A stretch of 14,378 nucleotides of DNA from a virus, in UHGV virus genome UHGV-0315315. One strand, given 5' to 3'. The translations under genes were made by a program, and so were the position numbers. The notes under the pieces are model-generated. The model worked only from the letters and a program-made list of their open reading frames with translations. It had not been told where the DNA came from and ran no database searches. Positions 1 to 14,378 of the stretch are shown here, one piece after another; positions within the stretch are counted from its first letter, which is position 1, and the number at the start of each line of letters is the position of its first letter.

Positions 1-322
1 CTGCATGCATATATGGGTAGAAAGTATATGCAAGATGTGAGAAAAACACAGCAAGACAGGCGATACCTCTGAGACCGTCCGCATTACTATTGTGTTCTTG
101 AGCAACACTCATGAAAATTAACCTATGTTTAGAGTAATGTAGCCTAAAACGCCTAATCAAAAATAGGCGGATACCTTTGAGGCCATTCTAGCCTGAGGTT
201 AATCAAGATACCATTATGCTTTCATATCCAATCTGGCCGGAAGCGTCGCATCTGTTTCTCGCTAAGTATCAACGTAGTAAGCATCCATCAGCTCACTGAT
301 TATTCACTTTCTTAAAACTGCT
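1..322. other. Unassigned AT-rich flank beyond the point where sheath-gene homology ends (host DNA or another element)
   Basis: No ORF of 60 aa or more in any frame in the track; sheath-like translation diverges around 320-326; no recognisable tRNA or IS terminus by eye. Confidence 0.3.
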
Positions 323-577
323 AACAACAACCGTCACGGGTTTTGACTGGTCGGCAATTGCATCCAGCGAACGGGCCAGCGTGCCGGACTCGCCTGCTTT
401 ACCGCTGGCCTCCAGCACATCCGTCAGCAGAACCGGCTTATTGAGAGGGAACACGGACGCATCAGCATCATCGCCGGTGCAGACCATACCCACGATAGCA
501 GTGCTTACCGTGGTGAGGGAGCGGGTGCCGTCGTTAACTTCAACAACGCGCACCCCGTGGTGGTAATCCTGAGCCAT
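293..577 (-). pseudogene. FI: Truncated contractile tail sheath gene (P2 FI-like), N-terminal fragment only
   Basis: 94-aa ORF. N-terminus MAQDYHHGV...[10 protein letters not shown] follows the conserved N-terminus of P2-family sheath proteins (recollection, not searched). Similarity ends at about aa 85 and the frame stops 9 codons later (SSFKKVNNQ*). Full-length sheaths are several-fold longer. AGGAGG lies 6-11 nt upstream of the ATG at 577. Confidence 0.75.
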
Positions 578-653
578 AGTGGCGAACCTCCTGATTGGAT
601 TAGGCTTCGCCCTATGTTGAAGTGATTGTGCCTGACAAACAGCTAAGCGCAGT

Positions 654-671
654 TGTGTCGTTATTCACACA
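654..671 (-). promoter_or_regulatory. TGT-N12-ACA dyad, candidate Ogr/Delta-type late-promoter activator site upstream of the sheath gene (PF-like)
   Basis: tgtGTCGTTATTCACaca read directly at 654-671. Centre (~662) is ~85 nt upstream of the sheath ATG at 577, compatible with an activator site centred near -55 plus a ~30 nt leader. Confidence 0.4.
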
Positions 672-719
672 AAATAACGGTATTTGTCTGCTTGCAGGGA
701 TAATCAACATAATGCTGAT

Positions 720-1286
720 TCAGGGGGATTCATTGATCTTATTTGCCGGAAATTTTCTATAAATGGTAGAAACGCCTACATCAAAAATCAGTGCAATACG
801 CTGTCTTGATTCTCCGGCCTCGAGTAAACGCCCAATCTGTGCCCACTGTTCGGTGGTCAACTTAGGACGGCGTCCACCTACTCTGCCTTTGGCACGAGCT
901 GCAGCCAGCCCTGCCCTGGTACGTTCAACTATCAGTTCGCGTTCCATTTCAGCCAGGGCACCCATGACATGAAAAAAGAAACGGCCCATTGGGGTACTGG
1001 TATCAATACTGTCAGTCAGGCTTCTGAAATTCACACCACGCTGGCGCAACTCTTCTATCAGCGTAACAAGATGCCGCATACTGCGCCCCAACCTGTCCAG
1101 CTTCCAGACAACCAGCGTGTCTCCTGCCGATAGTGTCCTGAGTAGTTTTTTCAGCCCCGGTCTGTCGGACTTAGTGCCACTGATTTTGTCCTCAAAAATC
1201 CGCTCACATCCCGCGCAGTTCAGTGCATTACGTTGCAAATCGGTGTTCTGGTCATTTGTTGACACGCGTACATAGCCAATAAGCAT
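720..1286 (-). CDS. Serine DNA invertase (Gin/Pin/Cin/Hin family)
   Basis: Track ORF 720..1292 begins at a TTG; the first ATG is at 1286 (MLIGYVRVSTNDQ...). Catalytic-serine motif GYVRVSTNDQ of resolvase/invertase recombinases and a C-terminal HTH-like tail (GVSTIYRKF). Near-colinear with remembered Pin/Gin sequences. Confidence 0.9.
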   Translation of the reverse strand: MLIGYVRVSTNDQNTDLQRNALNCAGCERIFEDKISGTKSDRPGLKKLLRTLSAGDTLVVWKLDRLGRSMRHLVTLIEELRQRGVNFRSLTDSIDTSTPMGRFFFHVMGALAEMERELIVERTRAGLAAARAKGRVGGRRPKLTTEQWAQIGRLLEAGESRQRIALIFDVGVSTIYRKFPANKINESP

Positions 1287-1341
1287 GATCAATCCCCTGA
1301 ATAAAAACCGGGGATGATGCCAGTTAGCCGTTATCTCTGCA

Positions 1342-1367
1342 TTTTCATAAACGTTGGTTTTGGAGAA
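1342..1367. repeat. Left crossover site of the invertible segment (hix/gix-like 26-bp site)
   Basis: TTTTCATAAACG-TT-GGTTTTGGAGAA. Its reverse complement matches the site at 3088-3113 at 21 of 26 positions (hand alignment). Half-site resembles the TTATCAAAAACC-type consensus of Hin/Gin sites. Flanking similarity continues to about 1377. Confidence 0.7.
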
Positions 1368-1649
1368 GGTGCTAACTGGGTTATGTTACCTGGAGGAATG
1401 ATAATTCAGCGTGTTTATCTTGGATTTCCTATTGGCACCAATGCAAGACACATAACTTTCCCCCGGTCGTTTACAACAACGAACTATTCCATCTCAATTA
1501 ACTGGAATGATATCGGTACTGTAACAACTGAAACACAATCACCAGCAAATGTGGCGGTTGTTCATCAAACAAAATCATTAACAGGGGCCAGCATCTGGCA
1601 GGCAGGTCCCGGGGGATTTAATGTGGACATTATAGCGGTGGGGTATTGA
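1368..1649 (+). CDS. Alternative tail fibre C-terminal cassette (Hv'), silent in this orientation; no start of its own
   Basis: Reading frame runs through the left crossover site. The motif VGFGEGA here parallels LGLGEGA at H residues ~350-356, which overlaps the right crossover site. Would be joined to the constant part of H after inversion. The track Met at 1314 lies upstream of the site and is probably not used. Confidence 0.55.
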
Positions 1650-1650
1650 T

Positions 1651-2079
1651 ATGTACGTATGGAGCGCTAAATCAAATGGCTTTTTCCCCATATCGGAGAA
1701 AGAAAAATTTGAGGCATCAGGTCTGTGGCCTGATGATGGTGTAATAGTCAGTGAGGAAGAACATAAAAAGTTATTTATGGATATTCCACCAGGAAAACAG
1801 ATTGGAACACTGAATGGAAAACCAGCACTGATAGATATTCCTCAGCCGACCAAAAAGGAATTAATAGCTATTGCTGAAGTTAAAAAATCCCAATTACGGG
1901 AAAAAGCTGACAGTGAAATATCCTGGCGTCAGGATGCTGTTGATGCTGATATCGCAACTGATGAAGAAACTTCAACTCTCACCGAATGGAAGAAATACCG
2001 TGTGCTGCTGATGCGTGTTGATACTTCAACAGCACCCGATATTGAATGGCCTACGCCTCCGGCAGTTCAGGCCAGATGA
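1651..2079 (+). CDS. Alternative tail fibre assembly chaperone (Tfa'), partner of Hv'
   Basis: 142-aa ORF starting at an ATG that overlaps the Hv' stop (TGATATG). C-terminus ...[13 protein letters not shown] parallels the C-terminus of the minus-strand chaperone (...[13 protein letters not shown]), a conserved Tfa/gpG-type tail. Confidence 0.75.
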
Positions 2080-2644
2080 CATCCGGCGCGGTGCTGGTAT
2101 CTGTTGCCGTCACCGCGTCAATGTAATCCAGCACGGTGTTAAGTCGGGTTGTTTCTGCCTGAGTCAGTTTCCGTCCGGCCTGTAATTTCAGCTGAATCAG
2201 ACTAATGGAAGCCATTACTGCATCAATCAGTGACTGGCGCTGTGCTTCTGCTGCTTCTACTGCGGCACCGTGTTGTGCCTCAGTATCTGTCACCCATTTC
2301 TCACCATCCCATTTATCATATGGCGTTAACGGTGAAAGCGTGACATAACCGTTTTTGATGGCACCGATATAATCCACTGTAACAGCTGCGCCATTTTCTG
2401 TTGAGTAAACAGTCTCATTGCGATGGTCTTCTTCATGGCTCCATCCCTTACCCGTAAATACTGCCACTTTCCCCGGAATGTTTTCGCCCGGGTCAATACC
2501 AGTGGAACAGGCGGGCATACTTACGCCAGTATTAATATATTCATCAGACCAGCCCGTATACTCAGATGTTTCAGCATCATAATAAAAACAACGCATATCG
2601 CCCGGCACTGTGGCCAGCCCATTTTCATCAAAAACAGGTTTCAT
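2051..2644 (-). CDS. G: Tail fibre assembly protein (P2 G-like)
   Basis: 197-aa ORF. ATG overlaps the H stop (TAATG). Conserved Tfa C-terminal motif. Its 3' end overlaps the convergent Tfa' 3' end (2051-2079). Confidence 0.85.
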
Positions 2645-4149
2645 TATTTAGCCCTCACCAGAAAGTTAAATGCAATATTTCGCGGTCTGACAGCAACAAA
2701 ATTCACACCATCACCCACAGAGTTACTGGTGAAATTAAATCGTGAAAATCCTGGCTGATTTCCGGCGATGCCATCATGAAAGTTAATTGCGTGTCCCGCA
2801 CCTCCGCCTATATTCCCGGCAAACTGAGAAAAGTTTGTAGCTTCCTGCCAGCTTAATAATTCGCGACCACCGTCTGCACCTCGCCCGTCATCCCAGATAC
2901 GAATGAAATCACCGCGGGCTTCAGGTAATATCAGCGAAGGAAACACTTTCGCCAGCACAGGATAATCAGTGGCAGAGAATTTCGCGCCGTTGAACTTCAA
3001 AAACACCATACTGGACCAGCTGTCGATTACAGTATTTGGCATTGCAGCGGACGGCCAGAAGAACGGAACGCCAATAGCTGGAGCACCTTCTCCCAAACCA
3101 AGGTATGTGAGAAGACCAGCTACATCCTTTCCACTCAAATTGGTAAGCGTATTGTCCAGCGGTTGTTTACCTGCCAGCGCATTAAGCATTGTCGTGGCAA
3201 AGTTCGGATCATTCCCCAGTGCCGCCGCCAGTTCGTTCAGTGTATCCAGTGCAGCAGGTGCAGAACCCACCATTCCTGCAATCGCCGATTTCACAAAAGC
3301 CGTAGTGGCAATCTGTGTATTGTTGACCGACTGCGCCGCCGTGGGGGCTGTTGGCGTTCCGGTGAGTGCCGGACTCGACAACGGTGCTTTAAGTGCCAGC
3401 GCATTGTTAATGGTGGTACTGAAATTCGGATCATTGTTAATGGCTGCGGCTATTTCTTTCAGCGTGTCCAGCGTGGCTGGCGTACCATTAATAAGGGCCG
3501 TCAGTGCCGCCTGTACAAACGCAGTGGTCGCAACCTGCGTGGTATTATTCCCCGCCGCTGGCGTTGGCGCTTTGGGGGTTCCGGTAAATGTCGGGCTGGC
3601 TTTTGGCGCGTACTGTGAATGCGGGTCCGGTGCGGCAAGATGTTTTGCCATCTGATCATCCGCGTACACCTTCAGCTCCAGTGCCTTGTCATCCACATAC
3701 TTGCGGGTTGCCAGCACTACAGCAGGGTCGATTTTCAGGGTGATATTGTCCGTGCTGCTGGTAATCAGCACCATGCGCACGGTCTGAGTGCGCCCGCTAC
3801 CTTCAGCCAGTTGCGGCTTATAGCTTTCCGGGCAGTTGCCCACAGCAATCAATGCCCCGGACTCATCAAACAAGCCCACTTCACGTATCCACCAACCGCC
3901 CTCGTTTTCAGGGATCACCTGTTCGGCAATAATCTGGCTGCTGTTCTGCGGGTCGATATAAAGCATATTCAGCGCAGCCCGGCGTTTCTCATTTACCAGT
4001 GCCGTCTGCTTTGCGTCCGGCGTTGGCAATACTCCACCGCCATCGCCCACCGCCATATAGGTAATTTTTAGCGGCACACCGAGCGCGGCGGCGCTGGCAA
4101 GTTTCGCCGCGCCAATATCCGTCAGCAGGGTATAAAATTTTGTGCTCAT
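2644..4149 (-). CDS. H: Tail fibre protein (P2 H-like): constant N-terminal part plus currently fused variable tip
   Basis: 501-aa ORF. Repeated ...NNTQ(V/I)ATTAFV... units typical of phage tail fibre repeats. Position upstream of the chaperone gene; crossover site embedded at codons ~346-354. Confidence 0.9.
   Translation of the reverse strand: MSTKFYTLLTDIGAAKLASAAALGVPLKITYMAVGDGGGVLPTPDAKQTALVNEKRRAALNMLYIDPQNSSQIIAEQVIPENEGGWWIREVGLFDESGALIAVGNCPESYKPQLAEGSGRTQTVRMVLITSSTDNITLKIDPAVVLATRKYVDDKALELKVYADDQMAKHLAAPDPHSQYAPKASPTFTGTPKAPTPAAGNNTTQVATTAFVQAALTALINGTPATLDTLKEIAAAINNDPNFSTTINNALALKAPLSSPALTGTPTAPTAAQSVNNTQIATTAFVKSAIAGMVGSAPAALDTLNELAAALGNDPNFATTMLNALAGKQPLDNTLTNLSGKDVAGLLTYLGLGEGAPAIGVPFFWPSAAMPNTVIDSWSSMVFLKFNGAKFSATDYPVLAKVFPSLILPEARGDFIRIWDDGRGADGGRELLSWQEATNFSQFAGNIGGGAGHAINFHDGIAGNQPGFSRFNFTSNSVGDGVNFVAVRPRNIAFNFLVRAK
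3088..3113. repeat. Right crossover site of the invertible segment, inside the H coding sequence
   Basis: TTCTCCCAAACC-AA-GGTATGTGAGAA; inverted relative to 1342-1367; central AA dinucleotide as in hix-type sites. Confidence 0.7.
3157..3603. repeat. Tandem duplication (~222 bp, ~74 codons, two copies) inside the tail fibre gene
   Basis: H residues ~184-257 and ~258-331 are two diverged copies (SPTFTGTPKAPTPAAGNNTTQVATTAFV...DPNFSTTINNALALKAPL versus SPALTGTPTAPTAAQSVNNTQIATTAFV...DPNFATTMLNALAGKQPL). Corresponding DNA direct repeats are visible on the plus strand. Confidence 0.7.
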
Positions 4150-4751
4150 GGATTCACTCTCATTGTGTCAATAACATGGACCGCCCCGCCTTCATGCGCG
4201 GTGCCACCGGAAATAATCGTTTCGTTGATATACGGATAGATCGTGATTTCTTCGCCAAGATAGCTGGCGGCTCCCACCCAATGCGGGCCGCTGGTCTGCA
4301 GATTGATGGACATGCCGATCATGTGGCGGCTACATGGTTTGGCATCGCTTATCAGTCGCTCAAGTTCCAGATAGGTATCTTCAGTGATGCCCTGGTCCTG
4401 CACGCCGATATCCAGGCGAAACGTGCCCGGTGTTTCTCCGGTCTGCCACCACTCAATAATGCGGATCAGGAATCCGAACGGTTCCACCACCCGCCGCACG
4501 GCACTGGTGGTTCCTTTATGCTGATGAATATAAAAAGCATCCTTCACTACCTGGCGTTTGACGCTTTCTGTCCAGCCCTCGTCCCAGCGATCCACAGAGA
4601 ACGCCCAGGCGAGATAAGGCAGGAAGCTGACCGGACAGGTAGCCGGATTCCACAAGTCACGCAGCGGCACCTGCAAATCAGAAATCCCGCTACAGGTTTG
4701 CGCCAGTCGGCGCTCCAGTGAAGTTGAACCCGGTGGCAGCAGACTATTCAT
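4146..4751 (-). CDS. I: Baseplate assembly protein (P2 I-like)
   Basis: 201-aa ORF, ATG start, 4-nt overlap with H start; gene order J-I-H; family recalled from sequence. Confidence 0.85.
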   Translation of the reverse strand: MNSLLPPGSTSLERRLAQTCSGISDLQVPLRDLWNPATCPVSFLPYLAWAFSVDRWDEGWTESVKRQVVKDAFYIHQHKGTTSAVRRVVEPFGFLIRIIEWWQTGETPGTFRLDIGVQDQGITEDTYLELERLISDAKPCSRHMIGMSINLQTSGPHWVGAASYLGEEITIYPYINETIISGGTAHEGGAVHVIDTMRVNP

Positions 4752-5652
4752 CCGTTCCTCCGTTGGTTACGCTCCACTGCGTACATGATGCCGCCTGTGT
4801 TTTGTTCAGGACCACATCCGCCAGCGGAGAAGCCAGTTCCACACGTTGAACACCCTCAACATGCAGAGCAGCAAAGATGGCGCTACGGCGAATATCCCGA
4901 CCAAGCCTCGTCTGGCTGGCAATGTACTTCTGCAGACTGGCTTTTGCCGCTGCCATTACCGGCTCTGCTTCCGGTCCCGGATAGAGAAAAATGGTGGCAT
5001 CCACGCGATACGGGATTATTTCTGCGCTGCGAACCGTAAGACGGTCAGCCACCGGGCGGACGTTCTCACTGTTCAGAGCTTTTTCCACCACATCCAGCAG
5101 GTCTTTTTCTGCTGTTCCGTCGCCTTCGCGGCTAAGGACAGTCAGCACCACCTCTGCAGGAGCCGGACTGGTTGCACTGGCATCCGCCACCCGACCGTCG
5201 GCGCTTCGGGCATGAAATTCATAAGCTGCGGTTGGCCCCGCAACTGAAAGCCCCTCAAAGGCTGCAGGCACACGCAGGCGTAACGCTTCATCGCTTTCCA
5301 TCACAGCCGCAACGGGCGGCACAGCGTCATTATCAGCAGGCGTCACCGTCAGGCGTTTCACGTTGTAGTTGGCAGCGATCTGGTCAAGATCGCCGCCCAT
5401 CGCGTAAGCCACCATTACCGCCTGCGCGGCTTCGTTAATGCGCTGGCGCAGAAGCAACTCACGGTAAGCGTTCTCCTGCAACAATTTGGTGACGGGTTCA
5501 GATTCCAGTTCCAGCGTGCGGATCACTGCTTCCTGCTCATCTTTCGGATGAAGCGCAACAAATTCGGCCTTGCGTTCGGCAAGCAGCGTCTCAAAGTCCG
5601 GCACATCGACAATCTGCGGCGCAGGCAACTGCGAAAGGTCAATCACTGCCAT
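4744..5652 (-). CDS. J: Baseplate assembly protein (P2 J-like)
   Basis: Track ORF extends to a GTG at 5691. Preferred start is the ATG at 5652 (MAVIDLSQLPAP...) with AGGAG 7-11 nt upstream. Confidence 0.85.
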   Translation of the reverse strand: MAVIDLSQLPAPQIVDVPDFETLLAERKAEFVALHPKDEQEAVIRTLELESEPVTKLLQENAYRELLLRQRINEAAQAVMVAYAMGGDLDQIAANYNVKRLTVTPADNDAVPPVAAVMESDEALRLRVPAAFEGLSVAGPTAAYEFHARSADGRVADASATSPAPAEVVLTVLSREGDGTAEKDLLDVVEKALNSENVRPVADRLTVRSAEIIPYRVDATIFLYPGPEAEPVMAAAKASLQKYIASQTRLGRDIRRSAIFAALHVEGVQRVELASPLADVVLNKTQAASCTQWSVTNGGTDE

Positions 5653-5998
5653 TCTCTGCTCCTGTTGATACGGAAAGGGAAACAGGCACACCGTTATTAC
5701 GCCGCCCGGTCAGCCCCACCACCATTGAACCGTCAAAATTGCTTTTAATGGTGATGGAATCCAGCGTCAGCCGTGGCTCCCAGCGACTCAGCGCCACATA
5801 CACTGCCGACATGACCTGCAGGCGTAATGCCGGATTTTGTGGCTGGTCTATCAGTGCCGACAGCAGGGAACCATATTCCCGACGGGCAATGCGGCTACCC
5901 TGCGGCGTCAGCAAAATGTCCCGCACCGACTGGCGCAGATGGTCAATATCAGTAATGGCTTTACCGCTGGTATTGTTCATCCCGCTATAAAGCGTCAT
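5639..5998 (-). CDS. W: Baseplate wedge protein (P2 W-like, gp25 / lysozyme-like fold family)
   Basis: 119-aa ORF; ATG overlaps the V stop (ATGA); size and position typical. Confidence 0.85.
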   Translation of the reverse strand: MTLYSGMNNTSGKAITDIDHLRQSVRDILLTPQGSRIARREYGSLLSALIDQPQNPALRLQVMSAVYVALSRWEPRLTLDSITIKSNFDGSMVVGLTGRRNNGVPVSLSVSTGAENGSD

Positions 5999-6573
5999 AC
6001 CGGGCCTCCGGTTGTGTCGCCGCCTTTCAGGACGCCAGTATGCTGATGTGCATCAACCACAATTCCGTTAGAACTCATTGCACCGCCGCCCTGGGTAACA
6101 CCACCATTGATCACTACTTCGCTGTTAATGCGTGTGCGGTCAGCCTCCAGTACAAACTCACTGGTTTTCAGGGTGATGTTGTCGGCAGCTTCAATGACCA
6201 TGGATTTGATTCCCCTGACATACCAGCGCCCGGTAGCGGGTTCGTATTCAAACCAGCCACCGTCAGGATGTTCTGTCACACAGGCGTCCACCGACGCCGA
6301 CGGTGGTGCGAACTGATTCGAATAGACAGCGGGCAGCGCAAAGGCGGTTTCCAGATTGCCGCCCAGACTCAGCAGCACCACCTGCTCACCTTCCGATGGT
6401 CGCCACCATGTGCGGGCATTACCCGCGCGCAGCGTCAGCCAGTTAATCCAGTTGGTTTCAAGGTCGCCCGTTTTCACCCGACAAAGCCAGTGTTCCCGGT
6501 CCACTTCGGTGACTACACCAGTGCGGATCAGGTTGGTGATAAGGCGCATGATTTCGGTTAATTGTGCGTTCAT
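5995..6573 (-). CDS. V: Baseplate spike / assembly protein (P2 V-like)
   Basis: 192-aa ORF; N-terminus MNAQLTEIMRLITNLIRTG resembles remembered P2 V; first gene of the V-W-J-I-H-G block. Confidence 0.85.
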   Translation of the reverse strand: MNAQLTEIMRLITNLIRTGVVTEVDREHWLCRVKTGDLETNWINWLTLRAGNARTWWRPSEGEQVVLLSLGGNLETAFALPAVYSNQFAPPSASVDACVTEHPDGGWFEYEPATGRWYVRGIKSMVIEAADNITLKTSEFVLEADRTRINSEVVINGGVTQGGGAMSSNGIVVDAHQHTGVLKGGDTTGGPV

Positions 6574-6619
6574 AATTTAATCATGCCGAGATAAGATTGA
6601 TAAAAAAACTCTTTAGTTT

Positions 6620-6637
6620 TGTGCCAGTTATGATACA
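6620..6637. promoter_or_regulatory. TGT-N12-ACA dyad in the divergent V / ATPase intergenic region; possible late-promoter activator site (PV-like)
   Basis: tgtGCCAGTTATGATaca read directly. Located where a PV-type promoter is expected, but its centre is only ~55 nt from the V ATG, so spacing is not canonical. Confidence 0.25.
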
Positions 6638-6673
6638 AAGTGCATTTACTCATGGACTAAATAAAGGATTCCT

Positions 6674-7933
6674 ATGTTTAGATTATCTAGTGTCAAGATT
6701 GAAGGTTTTTGGGGAAGACTAAATGCATCATGTTCATTTAATGAAGATGTAAATATTATTATTGGTCGAAATGGGACCGGTAAAACAACCTTTATGAATA
6801 TTCTTCACTCAGTTCTGGCATTAGAACTCGAATCACTAAATGAGAATAGTTTTGATAATGTAACAATAAAAATAAAAGAAGGAAGCAAAACTAAAACAAT
6901 AAAAGTTGTGAGTAAATTTGACATAACTAAAGCTTTGCCTACGTTTGAATATACAATTTCTAGAAAGAAATATATTATCAGATCCTTTGAAGATCGTAGA
7001 CTACCTATTTATATGAGGAGAAAATATCAGGAAGACGTTGAAAAACTTAAATTAGAGTTAGATAAATTAGTTGCTTTATCTTCTCTATCAGTTTACCGAC
7101 TTAGAAGCGGTGAAGATTTTGAAATCAGAGACAAATATGGCTCAAAATTAATCAACCCTGTTGATTACCGATTAGAACAATTATTGCAGAACCTAACAAA
7201 ATATCAACTTTATTTATCACAAAGAGCTCGTGATGTTTCTGCAATATTACAGAAAGAGGTTCTTGCTTCTATTCTTTATAGTAAAGAAGATGGTATCGAT
7301 GACACATTTAACTTTTCTTTTGATAAAGAAAAAGAACGTAGAAATTTAATAGCTGCATATTCTCAGCTTGGAGCTTTTGATAGTGATGTCAGAAAGAAGA
7401 TTAACTTTCACGTTGAATCTATTGCCAAAACATTTGAAGAATTACGACTTGCAGAAAAAAATAACAGAAATATTTTAAATGTAGATTACAGATCATTTGA
7501 GGCATTACGAAAGACGCAAAGAATTATAAAGATGTCTTTAAAATCCGAGGAGAAAATAAAAAACATATTTCTTCCTATAAATCTATTTTTAGAAACATTA
7601 CATGAGTTCATAACCGATAAAAAATTTAATTTTATCTCCGGTGAGCTAGTAATAGAAAACGAGCATGGGCCGATTAGCCATAGTAATTTATCGTCTGGTG
7701 AAAAACAGCTATTAATTCTTTTTATTGAAACTTTGCTACAGCAAAACAAACCTTTCATCTATCTTACTGATGAACCAGAATTATCGCTACATATTGCATG
7801 GCAACGAAAAATAATACCTGCAATCAAACAACTTAATCCTAATGCGCAAATTATCGCCGCTACGCATTCACCAGAAGTGGCTTCTAAATATCGAAATGCA
7901 ATCTTTGATATGGAGAAATTGGTTCATGGATGA
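6674..7933 (+). CDS. ariA: ABC-type ATPase (AAA_15/AAA_21-like, SMC/OLD-related); AriA-like component of a PARIS-type defence system
   Basis: 419-aa ORF. Walker A GRNGTGKTT (6764-6790), ABC signature-like LSSGEKQ (7688-7708), Walker B FIYLTDEPE (D366/E367 at 7769-7774), H-loop AATHSPE. K/E-rich probable coiled-coil insert between the lobes. AGGAT 5-9 nt before the ATG. Strongly AT-rich compared with flanking phage genes. Confidence 0.7.
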   Translation: MFRLSSVKIEGFWGRLNASCSFNEDVNIIIGRNGTGKTTFMNILHSVLALELESLNENSFDNVTIKIKEGSKTKTIKVVSKFDITKALPTFEYTISRKKYIIRSFEDRRLPIYMRRKYQEDVEKLKLELDKLVALSSLSVYRLRSGEDFEIRDKYGSKLINPVDYRLEQLLQNLTKYQLYLSQRARDVSAILQKEVLASILYSKEDGIDDTFNFSFDKEKERRNLIAAYSQLGAFDSDVRKKINFHVESIAKTFEELRLAEKNNRNILNVDYRSFEALRKTQRIIKMSLKSEEKIKNIFLPINLFLETLHEFITDKKFNFISGELVIENEHGPISHSNLSSGEKQLLILFIETLLQQNKPFIYLTDEPELSLHIAWQRKIIPAIKQLNPNAQIIAATHSPEVASKYRNAIFDMEKLVHG

Positions 7934-8777
7934 TTTCCATTATTCTGCCGAAGCAGAAAATGTAATGAATTTATTTTACCAAGCTGAAGCCATGGTTTAT
8001 GTTGAAGGCCCAGATGATATTTGCTTTTGGGAAATCATCTTTAATAAAGCTAGTTCATTAAAGGTTGAAATCAAAGATGTTGGCGGCTGTGAAGAATTAA
8101 AAAAATATATTGATAGAGTTACTGATGAAGATCTTCAAATTATAATTGCATGTGATGCAGACTTCACTACATTTGAAAATGAGGAAAACGCTGATAGTCG
8201 CATTGTAAAAACTTATGGGCACTCCATCGAAAACACGTTTATTGACAAAACAGGCATATATAAGGCAATAAAAACTCTCGGAAAATTACCTCAAAAGATA
8301 ATGAACGATGTCAACGTCGATTCTTGGACAGAAGACTTTTATACCAAAATGGAACCCCTAATAAAACTTGATATATACAATCATATTTATAGAAAAGGCA
8401 TTTCAGTTATTGGTGACAGTGCAGATCGTTTCATGAAATCTAGAAAATCAAATGAAATTTGCGAGCAAAAAATCACGAGTTACAAAAACACCATCATTGA
8501 AAAATTAGGTGTGGAACCAGATAACATCGATTCATCTTTCAAATCAAAATCGATAGAATACAGAAAGTGGCTTAGAGGTCATTTTCTTTTTTCTGCAGTA
8601 CATAGGTACATTAGCACAACTGCAGAAAAAAATGGAAAAAAAGTATCCTTATCATATGAATCATTATATTCCAATTTAATGAATACATTTGAATCTAATT
8701 TTACCAATGCTCATATTGAGTTTAATCATTACCACGAAAAAATTAAAGCCATAAATATGCCACACGAAATGAAATAA
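7926..8777 (+). CDS. ariB: Toprim / DUF4435-like protein (OLD-family nuclease-like); AriB-like effector of a PARIS-type system
   Basis: Track ORF starts at an internal in-frame ATG at 7842 inside the ATPase gene. Preferred start is the ATG at 7926 overlapping the ATPase stop (ATGGATGA) with GGAG ~10 nt upstream. Candidate Toprim acidic residues: E in YVEGPDD (8004-8006) and DxD in IIIACDADF (8154-8162). No HNH or zinc-finger pattern seen. Confidence 0.6.
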   Translation: MDDFHYSAEAENVMNLFYQAEAMVYVEGPDDICFWEIIFNKASSLKVEIKDVGGCEELKKYIDRVTDEDLQIIIACDADFTTFENEENADSRIVKTYGHSIENTFIDKTGIYKAIKTLGKLPQKIMNDVNVDSWTEDFYTKMEPLIKLDIYNHIYRKGISVIGDSADRFMKSRKSNEICEQKITSYKNTIIEKLGVEPDNIDSSFKSKSIEYRKWLRGHFLFSAVHRYISTTAEKNGKKVSLSYESLYSNLMNTFESNFTNAHIEFNHYHEKIKAINMPHEMK

Positions 8778-8779
8778 GA

Positions 8780-8799
8780 AAAAATACAGATGTATTTTT
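8780..8799. terminator. Candidate bidirectional hairpin between the convergent Toprim gene and S
   Basis: aaaaataca-ga-tgtattttt, a perfect 9-bp inverted repeat followed by a T-run on the plus strand. The stem is A/T-only, so predicted stability is low. Confidence 0.25.
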
Positions 8800-8802
8800 A
8801 TA

Positions 8803-9249
8803 TTATTTAGATAACCATTCAAATAGGGTATCCTTGATTTGATAATATTCTTTATCGTGGATACCCAATAGCTTACGCTCTGCGTAACGGACCTCAGGTC
8901 CTTTGCGACTGACGCGATCACGCAGGCCGTAGTGATGAACGCGGGCAATGCGCTGCACCTTGCCTTCAAACTGCACGCTGGCAGAATCGGCGCTGGCGGC
9001 AGTTTTCAGGTATTTTGTGGTGCGCAGCTTCGCAAACATCTGACGTTTAATGCGGCCTTTTTTACTGCGTGCTGTTACCCGTCGCGGTTCATAGCTGCTG
9101 CCGTCAGGGTTGCGCTGCATCCTGATATTCTGCTGCTGTGTCCGGCGAAGTTCCTGCGCCAGTTGGCGCATCATACGGCTTCTTGCGGCTGGCTCCAGAT
9201 TCGCCAGCAAGGCACTCAGCCAGTCGTCCACCTTCTGCAATTCAGCCAC
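8803..9249 (-). CDS. S: Tail completion / virion morphogenesis protein (P2 S-like)
   Basis: 148-aa ORF; start codon is GTG at 9249, overlapping the R stop; family recalled from sequence. The last ~20 codons lie in AT-rich sequence. Confidence 0.8.
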   Translation of the reverse strand: MAELQKVDDWLSALLANLEPAARSRMMRQLAQELRRTQQQNIRMQRNPDGSSYEPRRVTARSKKGRIKRQMFAKLRTTKYLKTAASADSASVQFEGKVQRIARVHHYGLRDRVSRKGPEVRYAERKLLGIHDKEYYQIKDTLFEWLSK

Positions 9250-9673
9250 GTTTCACCGTCCACATTTCTTCAGGTTCATCGGGTTCCGCTACAGCTTCAA
9301 CGCTGGACACTGTGCCGTCAGTGCTGACCAGCACACGTTCCGTCAGTTGCAGGTTAAGGCTGATATCACAGACATCGTTGCGCAGAATATCCACCTCAAA
9401 GGTGAATAACTTTTCCCGTAAAGCGGGATTATTGATGGCATCGGGCTGGTTATCACGCAGCCACAGCAAAACCGGGGCCATCAACAGATTCTGGTCACCA
9501 CTGAAATCCTCTATCACCACGTTCAGGGTGTAGCGGTACTCCCATGACATGGAGCTGGCCCCCGTGGCAACCAGCGAACCGTTATCCACAAACAGATGCA
9601 GTTTGTCCGGGTTATTACGGACATAAGGCACTGCTTTATTAAGGGCGTGGCGCAGGGATTGTGGTTTGTTCAC
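9242..9673 (-). CDS. R: Tail completion protein (P2 R-like)
   Basis: Track ORF begins at a TTG (9694). Preferred start is the GTG at 9673 (VNKPQSLRHAL...) with AGGAG ~7 nt upstream. Confidence 0.8.
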   Translation of the reverse strand: MNKPQSLRHALNKAVPYVRNNPDKLHLFVDNGSLVATGASSMSWEYRYTLNVVIEDFSGDQNLLMAPVLLWLRDNQPDAINNPALREKLFTFEVDILRNDVCDISLNLQLTERVLVSTDGTVSSVEAVAEPDEPEEMWTVKRG

Positions 9674-9926
9674 TGTTTCGCTCCTGACACGCAATAATCA
9701 TGTCCACTTTGTCTGCACAGACCGCCCAGGCGGCCTCCGTTTCATCCAGCAATGCGTTCAGATCACCGTTAGTGCGCGGCGCTGTCTGATCCAGCCGACA
9801 CGGCGTCACTCGCGGACAACCACTGACGGTAAGCTGCACCTCCGGTGAGTGCCGGACGTTCCCGCAGCCGGATAATGTCAGCAGGCAAAGGAGTATCAGC
9901 CCAGCGGCGTAAATCCTCGTTCTCAC
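9639..9926 (-). CDS. lysC: Outer-membrane lipoprotein spanin (LysC / Rz1-like), overlapping the 3' part of lysB in another frame
   Basis: 95-aa ORF, GTG start; signal peptide with lipobox LTLSGC; Pro-rich C-terminus; overlaps lysB (9769-9926) and the R start. Confidence 0.6.
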   Translation of the reverse strand: MRTRIYAAGLILLCLLTLSGCGNVRHSPEVQLTVSGCPRVTPCRLDQTAPRTNGDLNALLDETEAAWAVCADKVDMIIACQERNSEQTTIPAPRP

Positions 9927-10197
9927 GTTTCAGTTCCTCGATCCGGCGTTGTCGTTGTCTCAGCTGTGCGCTGGTCTGTTCTGCTTCGGCATAGAGCCGC
10001 GCCTGCTCCCGGTTATTAGTTTCAGTCAGAATGGACAGGCTGATAAGCTGGCTGTTGCTCTTTGCCAGTGCCTGACTTTTGCTCTGCAGCTCGTCTGCCT
10101 GCGTGCTGATGGTCTGGCTGGCATCAGCCAGCCGCCACGTCTGCCAGCCCAGCGCCGCCAGTAATAACGCCAGCACAACCAGCAGCAACCGGTTCAT
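9769..10197 (-). CDS. lysB: Inner-membrane spanin (LysB / Rz-like)
   Basis: 142-aa ORF; N-terminal transmembrane helix (LLLVVLALLLAALGW) followed by a charged coiled-coil-like region; ATG overlaps the lysA stop (ATGA). Confidence 0.7.
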   Translation of the reverse strand: MNRLLLVVLALLLAALGWQTWRLADASQTISTQADELQSKSQALAKSNSQLISLSILTETNNREQARLYAEAEQTSAQLRQRQRRIEELKRENEDLRRWADTPLPADIIRLRERPALTGGAAYRQWLSASDAVSAGSDSAAH

Positions 10198-10571
10198 GCT
10201 GCTACCTGTTGCGCCATCTGATTACGGGTGATCCAGAAGGCAATAACGGTCAGTAGATAAAAGACCAGGGTAATAGCCCACCCCGTCCAGGCGAGACTTA
10301 CGACAATCAGCAATCGCATCACCCAGCTGATAAATACGTTTTCTTTTCGGGTAATGGTCTTCAGCAAAGATGCCCTCAACTCCTGCCAGAGCGAGCCATT
10401 CTTAATTAACGCAGCCAGTGCTACCGGAATTACCGCCCATGTCAGTAAACAGGCTACCCAAACGCCGGACGCTGCCAGTACCGGAAAAATCCCCTGCGGA
10501 TACACCATTGCTGCAATTAACAGCGCCATCCATAACATCAGAAACAGCCCGCTGATTAATTTCTTTTTCAT
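10194..10571 (-). CDS. lysA: Lysis-timing membrane protein (LysA-like)
   Basis: Track ORF extends to 10643. Preferred start is the ATG at 10571 (MKKKLISGLF...) directly after the endolysin stop. Multiple hydrophobic helices. Confidence 0.6.
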   Translation of the reverse strand: MKKKLISGLFLMLWMALLIAAMVYPQGIFPVLAASGVWVACLLTWAVIPVALAALIKNGSLWQELRASLLKTITRKENVFISWVMRLLIVVSLAWTGWAITLVFYLLTVIAFWITRNQMAQQVAA

Positions 10572-10572
10572 T

Positions 10573-11085
10573 TCAGTTTGCTCCCTGTAAACACCAGGCC
10601 ATCTCCCGCGCACGGCGGTTATCCAGCCCCTGATTAAACACACCTTTCACATAAACCCAGCGCGGTAACTGTCGGCACGCATCCGCCCAGCGCCGCTGAT
10701 TGAGCAATTTCACCAGTGTGGAACTGCAGGCATTGCTAGTTCCCACGTTGAAGGCAAACGACACCGTAGCGTCATACACCTTCTGTGGTGGCTGTTGCTT
10801 CACACACCTTTCCAGTGCCCGCTCCACACGCAGCACGTTGGAGATCAGCCCTTCTGCTGCCTGTCGTTCCGTGATTGTTTTGCCGGGAATGACGCCCGAT
10901 GTATTACCAATGCCGTCGGTCCAGACACCCGCGCTGCACTGATACGGCTGCAGACGACAGCCTTCGTAATCGGCAATCAGTTTCAGCCCTTCCACGGACG
11001 TATGAAGCTGCTGAAAGCCCGGCAGCGTGGCAGCAATAGCCAGCACGGCCCCGACAAGGCAGCGTTTAACGACTGATGGATTCAT
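10573..11085 (-). CDS. Endolysin, T4/P21-type lysozyme with SAR-like N-terminus
   Basis: 170-aa ORF. Weakly hydrophobic Gly/Ala-rich N-terminal segment (CLVGAVLAIAATLPGF) followed by the lysozyme catalytic region EG...D...GVWTDGIGNT. Resembles P21 R-type SAR endolysins (recollection). Confidence 0.85.
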   Translation of the reverse strand: MNPSVVKRCLVGAVLAIAATLPGFQQLHTSVEGLKLIADYEGCRLQPYQCSAGVWTDGIGNTSGVIPGKTITERQAAEGLISNVLRVERALERCVKQQPPQKVYDATVSFAFNVGTSNACSSTLVKLLNQRRWADACRQLPRWVYVKGVFNQGLDNRRAREMAWCLQGAN

Positions 11086-11281
11086 AGTCCTCCCGCGAGA
11101 TCTGCCCGTCGCGCAGAAGCTGGTAGGCTTTGTGTTTGTAGTACCAGTTGATAGCCAGCATCAGCACACCAATCATCAGGCCGCCCAGCGTTGAGATATC
11201 CTTGATGGACAAATCGCCCAGCCAGGCCAGCACGACGGCGATGCAATACGTGATAAAGGCGCTGATTCGCTCAAGCGTCAT
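11066..11281 (-). CDS. Holin, two transmembrane helices (class II / pinholin-like)
   Basis: 71-aa ORF immediately upstream of the endolysin, overlapping its start by 20 nt; two hydrophobic helices and a charged C-terminus. Confidence 0.7.
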   Translation of the reverse strand: MTLERISAFITYCIAVVLAWLGDLSIKDISTLGGLMIGVLMLAINWYYKHKAYQLLRDGQISREDYESISR

Positions 11282-11284
11282 AAT

Positions 11285-11488
11285 TCAGTCCCATAGCTGG
11301 ACGGTCTGCACGGTGGTGGTTGCCGGAATGTCCGGCAGCTCCACCTGCAGCCCGTGAGGTAAAAAGGGGCCGTATTCGGCAAGCCCCGGATTTGCCTTCA
11401 GTACCTGCTCCGTGACACCCTGCGTGCGCCCGTAATGACGCCAGCAAAGCGCGTCCACCGTGTCATACTGATGCGCACGCACTTTCAT
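11285..11488 (-). CDS. X: Tail protein X (P2 X-like, LysM-like)
   Basis: 67-aa ORF, MKVRAHQYDTVDALCWRHYGRTQGV...; closely parallels remembered P2 gpX; ATG overlaps the L stop. Confidence 0.85.
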   Translation of the reverse strand: MKVRAHQYDTVDALCWRHYGRTQGVTEQVLKANPGLAEYGPFLPHGLQVELPDIPATTTVQTVQLWD

Positions 11489-11952
11489 CAGATAAGCTCC
11501 ACTGTGCAGTGCGGCGCATCCTGCACCCGGCTGATGGCCCAGCGGGCGTCACGCCACAAATCACCGCTTGCTTCCGCCAGTTCCTCGCCTCGCTTCACAC
11601 CGGACGCCGTGGCGTCATAGTCCTGATAACGCTCGTTGAGCATGGCGCGTGCCCAGCAGTAAACCGCGTTGAAATAGTGCTGAATGCGCTCACTTTTGCC
11701 GTCCAACTGTTCCGCCGGAACCTCAGCCAGCGACGCATACCCCAGCATCTGCTGACGTCTGCGAAACTCATACAGCTCTGCGTTGACCTCCGAAATTGCC
11801 GATAGCGCAACCTGCTTTAAACGCGGCTGCGTCACCGTGCCGTCAGTGCGCATCACACTGCGAAACTCCGACAGGTCCACATCAGGCCAGAACGGCGTAT
11901 TTCTGATGATTTCCGCCTGTTCCGGTGCCTGTTCTGGCGCAACAAACTTCAT
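11488..11952 (-). CDS. L: Head completion / stabilisation protein (P2 L-like)
   Basis: Track ORF extends to 12015. Preferred start is the ATG at 11952 (MKFVAPEQ...) with AGGAGA ~8 nt upstream. Confidence 0.85.
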   Translation of the reverse strand: MKFVAPEQAPEQAEIIRNTPFWPDVDLSEFRSVMRTDGTVTQPRLKQVALSAISEVNAELYEFRRRQQMLGYASLAEVPAEQLDGKSERIQHYFNAVYCWARAMLNERYQDYDATASGVKRGEELAEASGDLWRDARWAISRVQDAPHCTVELI

Positions 11953-12047
11953 GCTGCTTTCTCCTGAAATAAAGGGCGGTGGACGGGGTTTTGATGTGGC
12001 AGAGCCTTTCGCCACCCCGTGCCGCCCGTGCGCGGGGGCACGTTCTG

Positions 12048-12698
12048 TCAGCGGCTGTCATTGCGCAGTCTGCGCTCCAGCTGCTGTTTGTCTTTTTTCA
12101 CGCCACAGCGGGGATCGAGCTGTAACGCATGGTTGAGATGATTAAGGGCGAAAGCCGGATTGCTTTCACTCAGGACTGCGCCAATCGCTTTATGCAGACG
12201 CGCCCGTGACTGGTCCGGCATATCCAGATCGTCTGTCAGTTCCAGCGTCTGCAGCAACAGATCAGCATCAAAGCCGATGGCGGCAAGCATTGCGCTCTGC
12301 GCTGCGTCTGCCATTTCCTCTGCCAGCACGGTCTGCACGTTGCGGTTACCCAGCGGCATCACCCAGCCATGACGCAGGGCATGACGCCCGATCTCCAGCG
12401 CCCCGGCATAATCTCCGGCATCAATGCGCCACAGCATCACGTACATCAGCACGTCATCCTGCTGTGCGCCTCCGGCAGCCAGGACACCCTCCGCCCAGGC
12501 GGCGTACTTCGGCAGCAGCTCCACTTTGATTTCCGCTTTTTTGACCGTGGACTGAACGCCCTTGAGACGGCGGCGGTCTTCCGCCAGTTGCAGCAGCATC
12601 AGGTCATAGCCCGACGCGTGGCGAACACTGCCGCCCTCGCGGGCGGCCTGTTCAGCCTGAACGCGCAGGCGATGCTGCCGTGCGGGACTCAGGCTCAT
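12048..12698 (-). CDS. M: Terminase small / endonuclease subunit (P2 M-like)
   Basis: 216-aa ORF; conserved ...LMYVMLWRIDAGDYAGALEIGRHAL... core recalled from the P2 gpM family; position between N and L. Confidence 0.85.
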   Translation of the reverse strand: MSLSPARQHRLRVQAEQAAREGGSVRHASGYDLMLLQLAEDRRRLKGVQSTVKKAEIKVELLPKYAAWAEGVLAAGGAQQDDVLMYVMLWRIDAGDYAGALEIGRHALRHGWVMPLGNRNVQTVLAEEMADAAQSAMLAAIGFDADLLLQTLELTDDLDMPDQSRARLHKAIGAVLSESNPAFALNHLNHALQLDPRCGVKKDKQQLERRLRNDSR

Positions 12699-12701
12699 GG
12701 T

Positions 12702-13757
12702 TTATGCTCCGGCTTCTGCGGCGGTGCTGAAGTCGCCAATCTGGATGTTTTCCACCAGTGCTGCGCAGCGGTAGTCCTCAACCACATAGGCTTCGTTAAC
12801 GGATTCAAAGTTTTCAATCCGGTCACGTTTCGGGTTGTCGATAACTGAACGGCGGCGGGTGTCTTCCTGCCAGTAGATGGACAGGTTATCCAGACGGGTG
12901 ATCAGCAGCGCATTCGGCGGGAAGAACGGCGCACGCACGGCCTGCAGGCCACCCATGCGTTTCTGGCTGATGATCATATCGGCAGCCAGTTTTTCACTGT
13001 TTTCCTGCTCTTTGTTGACCAGCGGGAAATACTTATCAGACAACAGTTCACGACCGCAAATCACCACCAGATCGTCATCGTCCTGGTAGACCACGTCGAT
13101 AAGCTCATTAACGGCATCCATCACCACGGCGTCCAGGTTGGCATATTCGCCACCTTTACCGACTTTCACCGCGCCCGGTGTGGTTTCACCGCCCGTGGTG
13201 GTGCTGCCCATGACGTGATCCGGTGCATCCTCACGGATTTTCTGCAGCCAGCCTTTATTCACATCCTGCAGCAGCGGGTTTTCGCTACGGTTGGAGGTTT
13301 TCGCACGCTTCACGCCGTTAAAGCCGATCATGATGCGGTCCAGTGCCTGACGTTTCACGATGGCGTCACGGATACGCACCTGAAAATCCTGAAACTTCGC
13401 CCACAGGTCCAGCTTCGCGTAGGTCAGCACCGTGTCAAAGTTGGTCTGCTCGCATTTATATTCCACATCGACCATCAGCGTCGGATCGACAGGTTCACGC
13501 TCTTTCGCGGTGGTATCAGTGGTTCCGGCAATGGTGCTGCCAACTCCCAACCCCAGCAGCTGACCGGACTGCTCAGTCACTGGCGTGACGTTAATCAGCG
13601 TCAGGAAAGCGGCGGACTGCTGGATCTGGTCTTCCAATGTCTGCTGCACGGACGGCTCTACGGTGAACTTACTGGAGAGTTCTTCAATCTCCACACCATT
13701 CAGGCGCGCCAGCTGCTGCAGGTAAGCGTTAAAGGCAAAGCGGGTTTTCTTTTTCAT
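12702..13757 (-). CDS. N: Major capsid protein (P2 N-like)
   Basis: 351-aa ORF, ATG start (MKKKTRFAFNAYLQQLA...); length and position typical of the P2 capsid protein. Confidence 0.9.
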   Translation of the reverse strand: MKKKTRFAFNAYLQQLARLNGVEIEELSSKFTVEPSVQQTLEDQIQQSAAFLTLINVTPVTEQSGQLLGLGVGSTIAGTTDTTAKEREPVDPTLMVDVEYKCEQTNFDTVLTYAKLDLWAKFQDFQVRIRDAIVKRQALDRIMIGFNGVKRAKTSNRSENPLLQDVNKGWLQKIREDAPDHVMGSTTTGGETTPGAVKVGKGGEYANLDAVVMDAVNELIDVVYQDDDDLVVICGRELLSDKYFPLVNKEQENSEKLAADMIISQKRMGGLQAVRAPFFPPNALLITRLDNLSIYWQEDTRRRSVIDNPKRDRIENFESVNEAYVVEDYRCAALVENIQIGDFSTAAEAGA

Positions 13758-13773
13758 CGGGTTTTATGCTCCA

Positions 13774-14378
13774 TCAGCAATTGGTCAGGGTGCCTGCCGG
13801 TGCGTCACCGCCCGGCGCGCGCTGGCGGTAATCCTTGCGGCTGTCTTCAATGCTCAGCTTTTGCTCAAGCTCGGCAAAGGCGGCCTGCTGCTCCTGCAGG
13901 GAGGACTCCAGCTCAGAAAGGCGCTGCTCCTGATCGGACAGGGATTTTTCCGTGCGCTCACTCAGGTTCTGCTGCTCAGTAGCGACCAGCTCCACGGCTT
14001 TATGCACATCAGAGAATCGCGCATCGTCGGTCTGCTCTTTTTTGGTGAACAACGCGGTGACGCGGGCAAAGAGGGACGGCTTTTCGTCCTGGGCTTCTTC
14101 GAGTTCGATCAGCGTTTCTTCGGCAGCGGTAAACAGGTTTTCAGGATTCTGCTTACGGTTTGCCAGCGGGTTATGTGCGGCACTGGCGCTGAATGCCAGC
14201 ATTTCGGTGCCGAGACTTGCCGGATCATCTGTTGCCGCCAGCCCCACAAGATAGGCTTTACCGGTGTCAGCAAACTTCGGGCTGACCTCCATGGAGGTAA
14301 ACAGCTTCTGGCCTTTTTTCACCAGTGCCACCAGGGAGTCTGTCGGTTCAACATCGGCGTAAAGTGCCATCTTGCCCG
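13774..14378 (-). CDS. O: Capsid scaffolding protein (P2 O-like), 5'-partial: continues past the right edge of the window
   Basis: Open frame continues upstream of the track Met at 14370 to the window end. C-terminus ...GGDAPAGTLTNC matches the conserved scaffold C-terminus. The visible ~200 codons are the C-terminal part of a longer protein. Confidence 0.85.
   Translation of the reverse strand, partial: GKMALYADVEPTDSLVALVKKGQKLFTSMEVSPKFADTGKAYLVGLAATDDPASLGTEMLAFSASAAHNPLANRKQNPENLFTAAEETLIELEEAQDEKPSLFARVTALFTKKEQTDDARFSDVHKAVELVATEQQNLSERTEKSLSDQEQRLSELESSLQEQQAAFAELEQKLSIEDSRKDYRQRAPGGDAPAGTLTNC

Follow-up and report, generated by a model that had tools for sequence, protein, structure and literature searches.

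In Escherichia coli B185, PARIS consists of two overlapping genes that encode an ABC ATPase, AriA (464 aa), and a DUF4435/Toprim protein, AriB, and is located in a P4-satellite hotspot next to cos. Both the Walker A lysine (K39) and the Walker B glutamate (E393) of B185 AriA are needed for defence. Assembly of an AriA6:AriB3 complex, trigger-dependent release of AriB, tRNA cleavage, and abortive infection are known for the B185 system only (PMC11464382, PMC12409363); 11 PARIS clades have been described in the literature, and the trigger-binding pores are poorly conserved between these clades. A second relevant element is orf30 of phage P2, which represents one of three moron regions in P2-like phages (PMC6823313, PMC3091744), and a third is P2 Old, a prophage-encoded protein with ABC ATPase and Toprim chemistry that excludes other phages. 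Here, we analyze virus genome UHGV-0315315 (14,378 nucleotides; hereafter, the window), in which a sharply bounded AT-rich block separates the tail-completion gene S from the baseplate gene V. The composition and junctions of this block, the polymorphism of the site, the homology and predicted folds of the encoded proteins, the conservation of their motifs, purifying selection, and the conservation of promoter elements are all shown here, and indicate that the block is, very probably, an exchangeable moron cassette at the P2 orf30 position that carries a PARIS-type abortive-infection system.

Comparison with described systems

Like B185 PARIS, the window locus comprises two overlapping genes for an ABC ATPase and a DUF4435/Toprim protein; the Walker A and B, signature and H-loop motifs and the Toprim acidic residues are conserved, and AriA and AriB are the top fold matches in the Protein Data Bank (PDB). 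Unlike B185 PARIS, the window pair belongs to a distant clade, with only ~16-21% identity to the solved proteins over structural alignments, its ATPase is 419 aa long rather than 464 aa, and it resides at the S-V junction of a helper-type P2-like phage rather than in a satellite hotspot adjacent to cos. Because the S-V junction does not adjoin cos, recombination through cos ends, as put forward by Rousset et al., does not apply to it.

The position of the cassette corresponds to that of P2 orf30. In both phages, antisense AT-rich cargo (GC content of the P2 interval, 0.35) occupies the S-V interval, between the O-operon terminator and the activator site of the V promoter, and V is leaderless. 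The cargo itself differs, with a single 261-aa membrane-type open reading frame (ORF) in P2 against a two-gene PARIS system in the window, and the S tail and promoter sequences are wholly different except for constrained positions. The other described hotspots of P2-like phages, namely gpA-gpQ (old/tin), Z/fun, and tail gene-cI, are similarly small and combine conserved anchor genes with fast turnover of AT-rich defence cargo. They differ from S-V in the anchor pair and in that the S-V cassette overlaps the end of an essential gene and an essential promoter. Finally, P2 Old is a single fused polypeptide encoded at the A-Q hotspot, whereas the window encodes two proteins, the second of which belongs to the DUF4435 family.

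Composition and boundaries of the S-V cassette

The GC content of positions 6574-8870 is 0.308, compared to 0.562 (3300-6573) and 0.568 (8871-14378) in the flanks, which by hand calculation from these values corresponds to a two-proportion z of ~22. In a 300-nt profile, the GC content drops from ~0.55 to 0.29 across 6451-6601 on the left and recovers across 8701-8851 on the right, with a single step of the profile spanning each edge. In V, J, R, and the S core, third-position GC content is 0.57-0.63, compared with 0.21 in ariA and 0.28 in ariB; within S itself, the last 21 codons have a GC content of 0.29 and the remainder 0.57. Alignment with two relatives that have an empty site, Escherichia phage 500465-1 (L002) and Klebsiella phage 4LV2017 (L003), maps the left homology break to 6574, a single base outside the complement of the V start codon, and the right break to ~8868-8871, that is, codon 127 of the 148 in S. 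Jointly, composition and homology breaks delimit the cassette as 6574..8871 (strand not applicable). Thus, the AT-rich island that a preliminary description of this DNA had recognized by eye is borne out by the sliding-window and third-position measurements, and the edges proposed there, at the V start codon and within the final ~20 codons of S, coincide with the mapped breaks; neither the PARIS cargo nor the V promoter inside the island figured in that reading, which was made from the sequence only.

On the S side, the cassette includes codons 127-148 and the stop codon of S (8803..8871, - strand), as determined by comparison of the tail with the empty site. The S protein consists of 148 aa in both cases, with the C-terminal sequence KLLGIHDKEYYQIKDTLFEWLSK in the window and RLLGVNDDVEAMTRDMILQWLAG in the empty site. 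The conserved core of S (8872..9249, - strand; Pfam Phage_tail_S, 5e-41) shows a single difference from phage 500465-1 in the first 126 residues. Nearly every cassette class brings its own final ~22 S residues after a conserved YAER(R/K)LLG patch, for a total S length of 147-152 aa, the exception being locus L068, which retains the empty-site tail. Of the two origins that had been considered for the AT-rich 3' end of S, supply by the insert or native sequence, the former is accordingly the one that holds.

Where the ariB and S genes converge, folding identified an AT-only hairpin between their stop codons, with an 8-bp stem and a 4-nt loop (8780..8799; strand not applicable), and with energies of -6.9 and -5.5 kcal/mol and z of -3.1 and -3.8 versus shuffled sequences for the two strands. 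The location of the hairpin is that of the annotated O-operon terminator in P2. It is a weak candidate for a bidirectional terminator.

On the V side, the cassette includes the entire putative promoter of V (PV). We compared 20 cassette classes with <70% identity over the 70 nt upstream of V (5995..6573, - strand; Pfam Phage_base_V, 6e-18, and GpV Apex). The only conserved positions are TTTGT at -66 to -62, ACAA at -49 to -46, A-11 (17/20), T-7 (16/20), and C-1. The first two belong to a TGT-N12-ACA box, the consensus of Ogr-dependent P2 late promoters (PMC3931495), which in the window is an Ogr/Delta-type activator box (6620..6637, - strand) centred ~55 nt upstream of the V ATG. Its start falls at -63 to -66 throughout the 18 S-V length classes of close relatives and in three diverged PARIS alleles, and the remaining region is unalignable. 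Exact TGT-N12-ACA matches occur in the whole window at chance frequency (5 found, 4.1 expected); the box counts as evidence because its position is fixed across unalignable cassettes, not because the motif is enriched. In P2, for which our statements on late promoters are based on the RefSeq annotation and on PMC3931495, the activator site of PV is annotated at the same distance, with a sequence that is not an exact TGT-N12-ACA match, and the transcription start of the V operon is the first base of the V coding sequence. By extension, the V operon of the window is likely to be leaderless, with transcription starting at the ATG (6573). If transcription starts at the A of this ATG, A-11 and T-7 are hallmark positions of a -10 element, which in the window is the hexamer CATGAT (6580..6585, - strand), spanning -12 to -7 relative to that A. 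A leaderless V, with all sequence upstream of the ATG forming part of the exchangeable module, would explain why the island ends exactly at the V start codon. The cassette would thus bring the final 22 S codons and a complete leaderless PV, with the activator box, the -10 hexamer, and the start site, so that the block from S codon 126 to the V ATG could be swapped without harming expression of the tail genes.

A second exact TGT-N12-ACA sequence is located at 654-671, ~85 nt upstream of the start of the sheath gene (577, - strand), and is a candidate late-promoter box of PF.

No terminal or flanking repeats were detected by repeat search, and the island contains no recombinase gene, that is, no hallmark of a transposon, insertion sequence, or integrase-borne element was found in it. 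We therefore rejected transposition or site-specific insertion, as flanking repeats are absent and the junctions fall on gene and promoter landmarks; cassettes are more plausibly exchanged by homologous recombination in the conserved flanks.

The S-V junction as a variable cargo slot

In the P2 RefSeq record, the O-operon terminator is followed by the non-essential orf30 on the opposite strand, a feature annotated as 'activator binding site; activation of pV promoter', and the V coding sequence, with an S-V interval of 940 bp (GC content 0.35). The window shows the same arrangement of variable AT-rich cargo between S and V, upstream of PV, in agreement with the assignment of the island to the orf30-type position in the preliminary description. 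To characterize the site in relatives, we compiled 80 IMG/VR loci encoding a V protein at least 96% identical to that of the window. Both S and V are present in 76 of these loci, 45 of which have an empty site, with a 68-bp interval of GC content ~0.51; phages 500465-1 and 4LV2017, with flanks that are 95% identical to those of the window, have just these 68 bp between S and V. The remaining 31 sites (~40%) are occupied by inserts of 17 different lengths, from 553 to 2229 bp, all with a GC content of 0.31-0.36. The S-V interval is hence as variable as that earlier reading had it: empty in most relatives, filled with 17 other inserts, and not universally conserved. The window's own PARIS cassette was found in identical form in three of the IMG/VR loci (L004, L013, and L015) and, at 99.7% identity or higher, in 18 of 5426 complete E. 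coli genomes.

The other cargos, many of them related to defence, include FRG/PDC-S15, a SIR2_2 protein (LmuA/ThsA-like), PDC-S59 (1.7e-197), AIPR/AbiU, and KAP NTPase/PDC-S49. No Pfam or PADLOC family was detected for the cargo proteins of L006 (304 aa), L033 (386 aa), L037 (449 aa), and L060 (307 aa) or for the 145-268-aa membrane-type cargo proteins of L010, L014, L028, L050, and L083, and P2 Orf30 gave no PADLOC hit. The family-less cargos are candidate defence or exclusion genes. Locus L075 encodes a 598-aa protein in which an AAA_15/AAA_21 ATPase is fused to a Toprim-like C-terminus (PADLOC AriAB, 1e-25; also GajA-like); with this fused protein at S-V, the slot is used by both split and fused ATPase-Toprim systems.

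Thus, S-V is a diverse, under-described defence hotspot. Three published accounts of hotspots in P2-like phages give gpA-gpQ, Z/fun, and tail gene-cI, and do not treat S-V as a defence hotspot.

Origin of the low GC content and of the cassette

Low GC content could also reflect a recent horizontal insertion, from a low-GC donor, into an empty S-V junction, with the AT-richness being an unameliorated donor signature. A low-GC donor had been suggested in the preliminary description, and a recent insertion would fit the compositional contrast (GC content 0.31 versus 0.56, with 0.21-0.28 at third positions), the empty site in many 95%-identical relatives, and the at least 99.7% identity of the cassette across 18 E. 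coli genomes. The diverged alleles argue otherwise. P2-like prophages with a PARIS allele at the same site and in the same orientation occur in Enterobacter bugandensis, a Cronobacter-type contig, and Edwardsiella tarda, with identities to the window of 83, 79, and 77% for AriA, 69, 63, and 57% for AriB, and 86, 88, and 71% for V, respectively; the V, W, and R genes of these prophages are comparably diverged. The diverged islands have a GC content of 0.34 versus 0.54-0.60 in their flanks, and the activator box is located at -64 in all three. Low GC content that is kept across alleles at 57-83% amino acid identity is a lasting property of the cassette pool of P2-like phages rather than the signature of a fresh donor. 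Furthermore, all 17 other cassettes and P2 orf30 have a GC content of 0.31-0.36, and the AT-rich block holds the C-terminus of S and the PV promoter, which are phage, not foreign, sequence. The synonymous sites of the cargo are saturated, which implies that the alleles are old. A recent low-GC donor is therefore unlikely, and that part of the preliminary description finds no support in the form given there, being too simple an account.

Strict co-divergence of cargo and flanks was rejected as well: the proportion of synonymous differences (pS) is 0.74-0.83, that is, saturated, in the cargo, versus 0.46-0.59 in the flanks for two of the diverged alleles (L089 and L090). The alleles may be older than their flanks and may have been exchanged from a pool. 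In Yersinia enterocolitica (L087/L088, 4752-6837), a 64%/44%-identical ATPase-DUF4435 allele preceded by a clear 10/12 sigma-70 promoter adjoins a cI-type repressor in a 186-like prophage; one PARIS clade thus uses more than one hotspot of P2-like phages.

Identification of the AriA-like and AriB-like proteins

Both island genes are antisense to the phage late operons. The first (6674..7933, + strand) encodes a 419-aa AriA-like ABC ATPase, identified by Pfam, PADLOC, phmmer, and Foldseek searches, with Pfam matches to AAA_21 (8e-23, 82.3 bits) and AAA_15 (2e-17, 64.6 bits). The best PADLOC model for this protein is AriA (5.7e-40), and a phmmer comparison with the solved PARIS AriA (8ux9_B) yielded E = 6e-17 with all motifs in register. 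These motifs are Walker A, GRNGTGKTT (K37); the signature, LSSGEKQ (339-345); Walker B, LTDEPELSLH (D366-E367); and the H-loop, ATHSP (H398), all invariant in 32 homologues. Hence, K37 and E367 provide the Walker A lysine and the Walker B glutamate that are needed for defence in PARIS. The AlphaFold2 (AF2) model of the protein, with a predicted local distance difference test score (pLDDT) of 81, is consistent with the AriA fold, an ABC head with a coiled-coil/trigger-binding insertion: the 14 best Foldseek matches of this model in the PDB are all AriA chains (E 2e-18 to 3e-15; template modeling score, TM, 0.53-0.64), followed by the retron protein PtuA (1e-12).

The second gene (7926..8777, + strand) encodes a 283-aa AriB-like DUF4435/Toprim effector, identified by Pfam, PADLOC, and the AF2 fold match, with an 8-nt overlap between the start of the gene and the stop of ariA (ATGGATGA). 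The protein matches Pfam DUF4435 (1e-25, 91.2 bits) and PADLOC AriB (2e-24), and the only significant PDB fold match of its AF2 model (pLDDT 92) is AriB of 8ux9_A (E 5.9e-6; TM 0.54/0.51). The invariant residues of the family are E27, G28, D31, T96, E102, N103, and H219, with conservation of at least 90% at D30, D77, and D79. In the model, E27 directly follows strand 1, and D77-x-D79 follows strand 3, so that both the sequence and the predicted structure appear to provide the catalytic glutamate and the metal-binding acidic residues of a DUF4435 Toprim nuclease; E27 is the probable equivalent of E26 in B185 AriB. NCBIfam was less informative, with only sub-threshold matches for the ATPase and no model for the DUF4435 protein.

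These scores exceed the bit-score thresholds of the published PARIS detection rule (Rousset et al. 2022, PMC9122126), which calls for a DUF4435 gene scoring 27 bits or more next to an ATPase gene that matches either AAA_15 with no less than 32 bits or AAA_21 with no less than 27: the overlapping genes of the window score 91.2, 64.6, and 82.3 bits, respectively. The ATPase-DUF4435 pairing, including the 8-nt overlap, is retained in an Acinetobacter strain and in the Yersinia 186-like prophage. Between alleles, the proportions of nonsynonymous differences in ariA (0.10-0.14) and ariB (0.17-0.26) contrast with a saturated pS of 0.74-0.83; ariA and ariB are both under strong purifying selection across genera. 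In every allele pair (6674-8777 compared with L089-L091), AriB diverges much faster than AriA, the reverse of the published expectation that the trigger-sensing part evolves fastest.

The pair could alternatively be an OLD/Gabija-like ATPase-Toprim DNA nuclease that attacks phage or host DNA, and no PARIS-type tRNase. Models related to GajA, PtuA, and OLD also match AriA, OLD Toprim regions rank second and third among the fold matches of AriB, and PARIS is placed within the OLD-like family in the literature. However, the window encodes two separate ORFs, not the one polypeptide with an ABC ATPase and a C-terminal Toprim_OLD that defines the OLD family, and the second ORF matches DUF4435, the AriB family, with no hit to Toprim_OLD (PF20469) in the Pfam search. 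The island contains no third gene, and neither a UvrD-like GajB nor an HNH PtuB neighbour was found, as would be expected for Gabija, Septu, or retron PtuAB systems. The best profile and fold matches are to AriA and AriB by a wide margin, 1e-18 versus 1e-12 for PtuA and 6e-6 versus 9e-3 for OLD. We consider such a DNA nuclease quite improbable.

Least credible of all is a toxin-antitoxin (TA) or addiction module, or a pair of decaying passengers without a defence role, to which the Pfam title of AAA_21 ('putative AbiEii toxin, Type IV TA') and the possibly defective state of the window's prophage copy might point, given that neither ORF is disrupted and that strong purifying selection acts on both across genera, that deletion of either gene of characterised PARIS is non-toxic, which excludes a TA mode (PMC9122126), and that the S-V site is enriched in other defence families.

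Proposed function and regulation

For the PARIS-type pair of the window, complex assembly, the trigger, the tRNA target, and the defence phenotype, as well as the recombination mechanism outlined above, are proposed by analogy. As in the E. coli B185 system, AriA would serve as a scaffold on which the Toprim nuclease AriB stays inactive until a phage trigger protein, for example, an anti-restriction DNA mimic, is recognised in an ATP-dependent manner. AriB would then be released, dimerise, and cut specific host tRNAs by two-metal chemistry. The resulting translation arrest would abort the infection and thereby protect the lysogen population and, hence, the prophage. Because the genes are antisense to the late operons, their expression in the lysogen could be uncoupled from late transcription. 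The sole promoter candidate for ariAB that is shared among the alleles, a TATGAT hexamer (6629-6634) found in all four S-V alleles, lies inside the activator box; if it is the cargo promoter, binding of the activator in the prophage's own late phase could silence the defence genes.

Several observations weigh against a PARIS-type cassette that is active in the manner of B185. Compared directly with PDB sequences by phmmer, AriB gave no match, and a profile built from 36 family sequences ranked AriB first in the PDB with just E = 0.089; because these sequence searches of the PDB were insufficient, the relationship of AriB to PARIS was decided by fold. AriB is 17% identical to B185 AriB over the structural alignment, and, given this low identity and the weak sequence matches, its substrate could differ. 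The AriA of the window falls short of its B185 counterpart by 45 residues, and the pores that bind the trigger are reportedly poorly conserved from clade to clade. A sigma-70 promoter scan found fewer sites than in shuffled sequences, with none in the 6574-6673 control region, and a looser promoter scan of the four alleles revealed no conserved -35/-10 pair for ariAB. A scan for G+C-rich terminators detected nothing at the S/ariB junction, and the hairpin there is weak. Finally, an apparent truncation of the sheath gene (see below) seems to leave the expression context of the cassette in the host uncertain.

Phage context

The window derives from a P2-like (Peduoviridae) prophage. The region 5600-9700 is 99.6% identical to Escherichia phage vB_EcoM-813R9, and the - strand encodes the late genes J, W, V (5995-6573), S (8803-9249), R, the lysis genes, and the head genes. 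The sheath gene ORF comprises merely 94 aa (293-577). Other E. coli prophages align to the window from position 324 onwards only, and bases 1-323 match an acyltransferase-family gene that is present in just 5 complete E. coli genomes. This prophage copy seems to be truncated or rearranged within FI (the sheath gene).

A resolvase/invertase gene (720-1292; Resolvase, 2e-53) adjoins oppositely oriented copies of tail-fibre genes, with C-terminal/assembly copies at 1314-1649 and 1651-2079 on the + strand and at 2051-2644 on the - strand. Across 720-2644, this arrangement suggests an invertible switch of host range at the Z/fun position. The GenBank 'phage' record nearest to the window (ON470620.1, L001) contains E. 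coli chromosomal genes at 1-5152 (artP, ybjP, ybjQ, an amiD-like gene, ybjS, and ybjT) that abut a shortened tail-fibre gene H. This entry is a prophage-plus-flank record and not a clean phage genome.

Implications for P2-like phages and PARIS

The window adds a divergent, P2-borne clade to PARIS, the trigger and tRNA targets of which probably differ from those of the B185 model. Its cassette architecture, in which the end of an essential gene and an essential leaderless promoter are moved along with the cargo, illustrates how cargo amid a tail-gene cluster can be replaced while the essential genes stay unbroken. The orf30 slot is a rich store of anti-phage genes, with at least 17 cassette types, several of these without a known family. 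For mining defence genes from short contigs, the YAERRLLG patch of S and the V ATG are simple anchors. Tentatively, and with less than even probability, S-V might rank fourth among the major defence hotspots in P2-like phages, having been missed by recent surveys, with self-contained cassettes that would each bring an S C-terminus and a leaderless, Ogr-dependent PV and carry several uncharacterised defence candidates, and with a cargo promoter that may be interlocked with the activator box.

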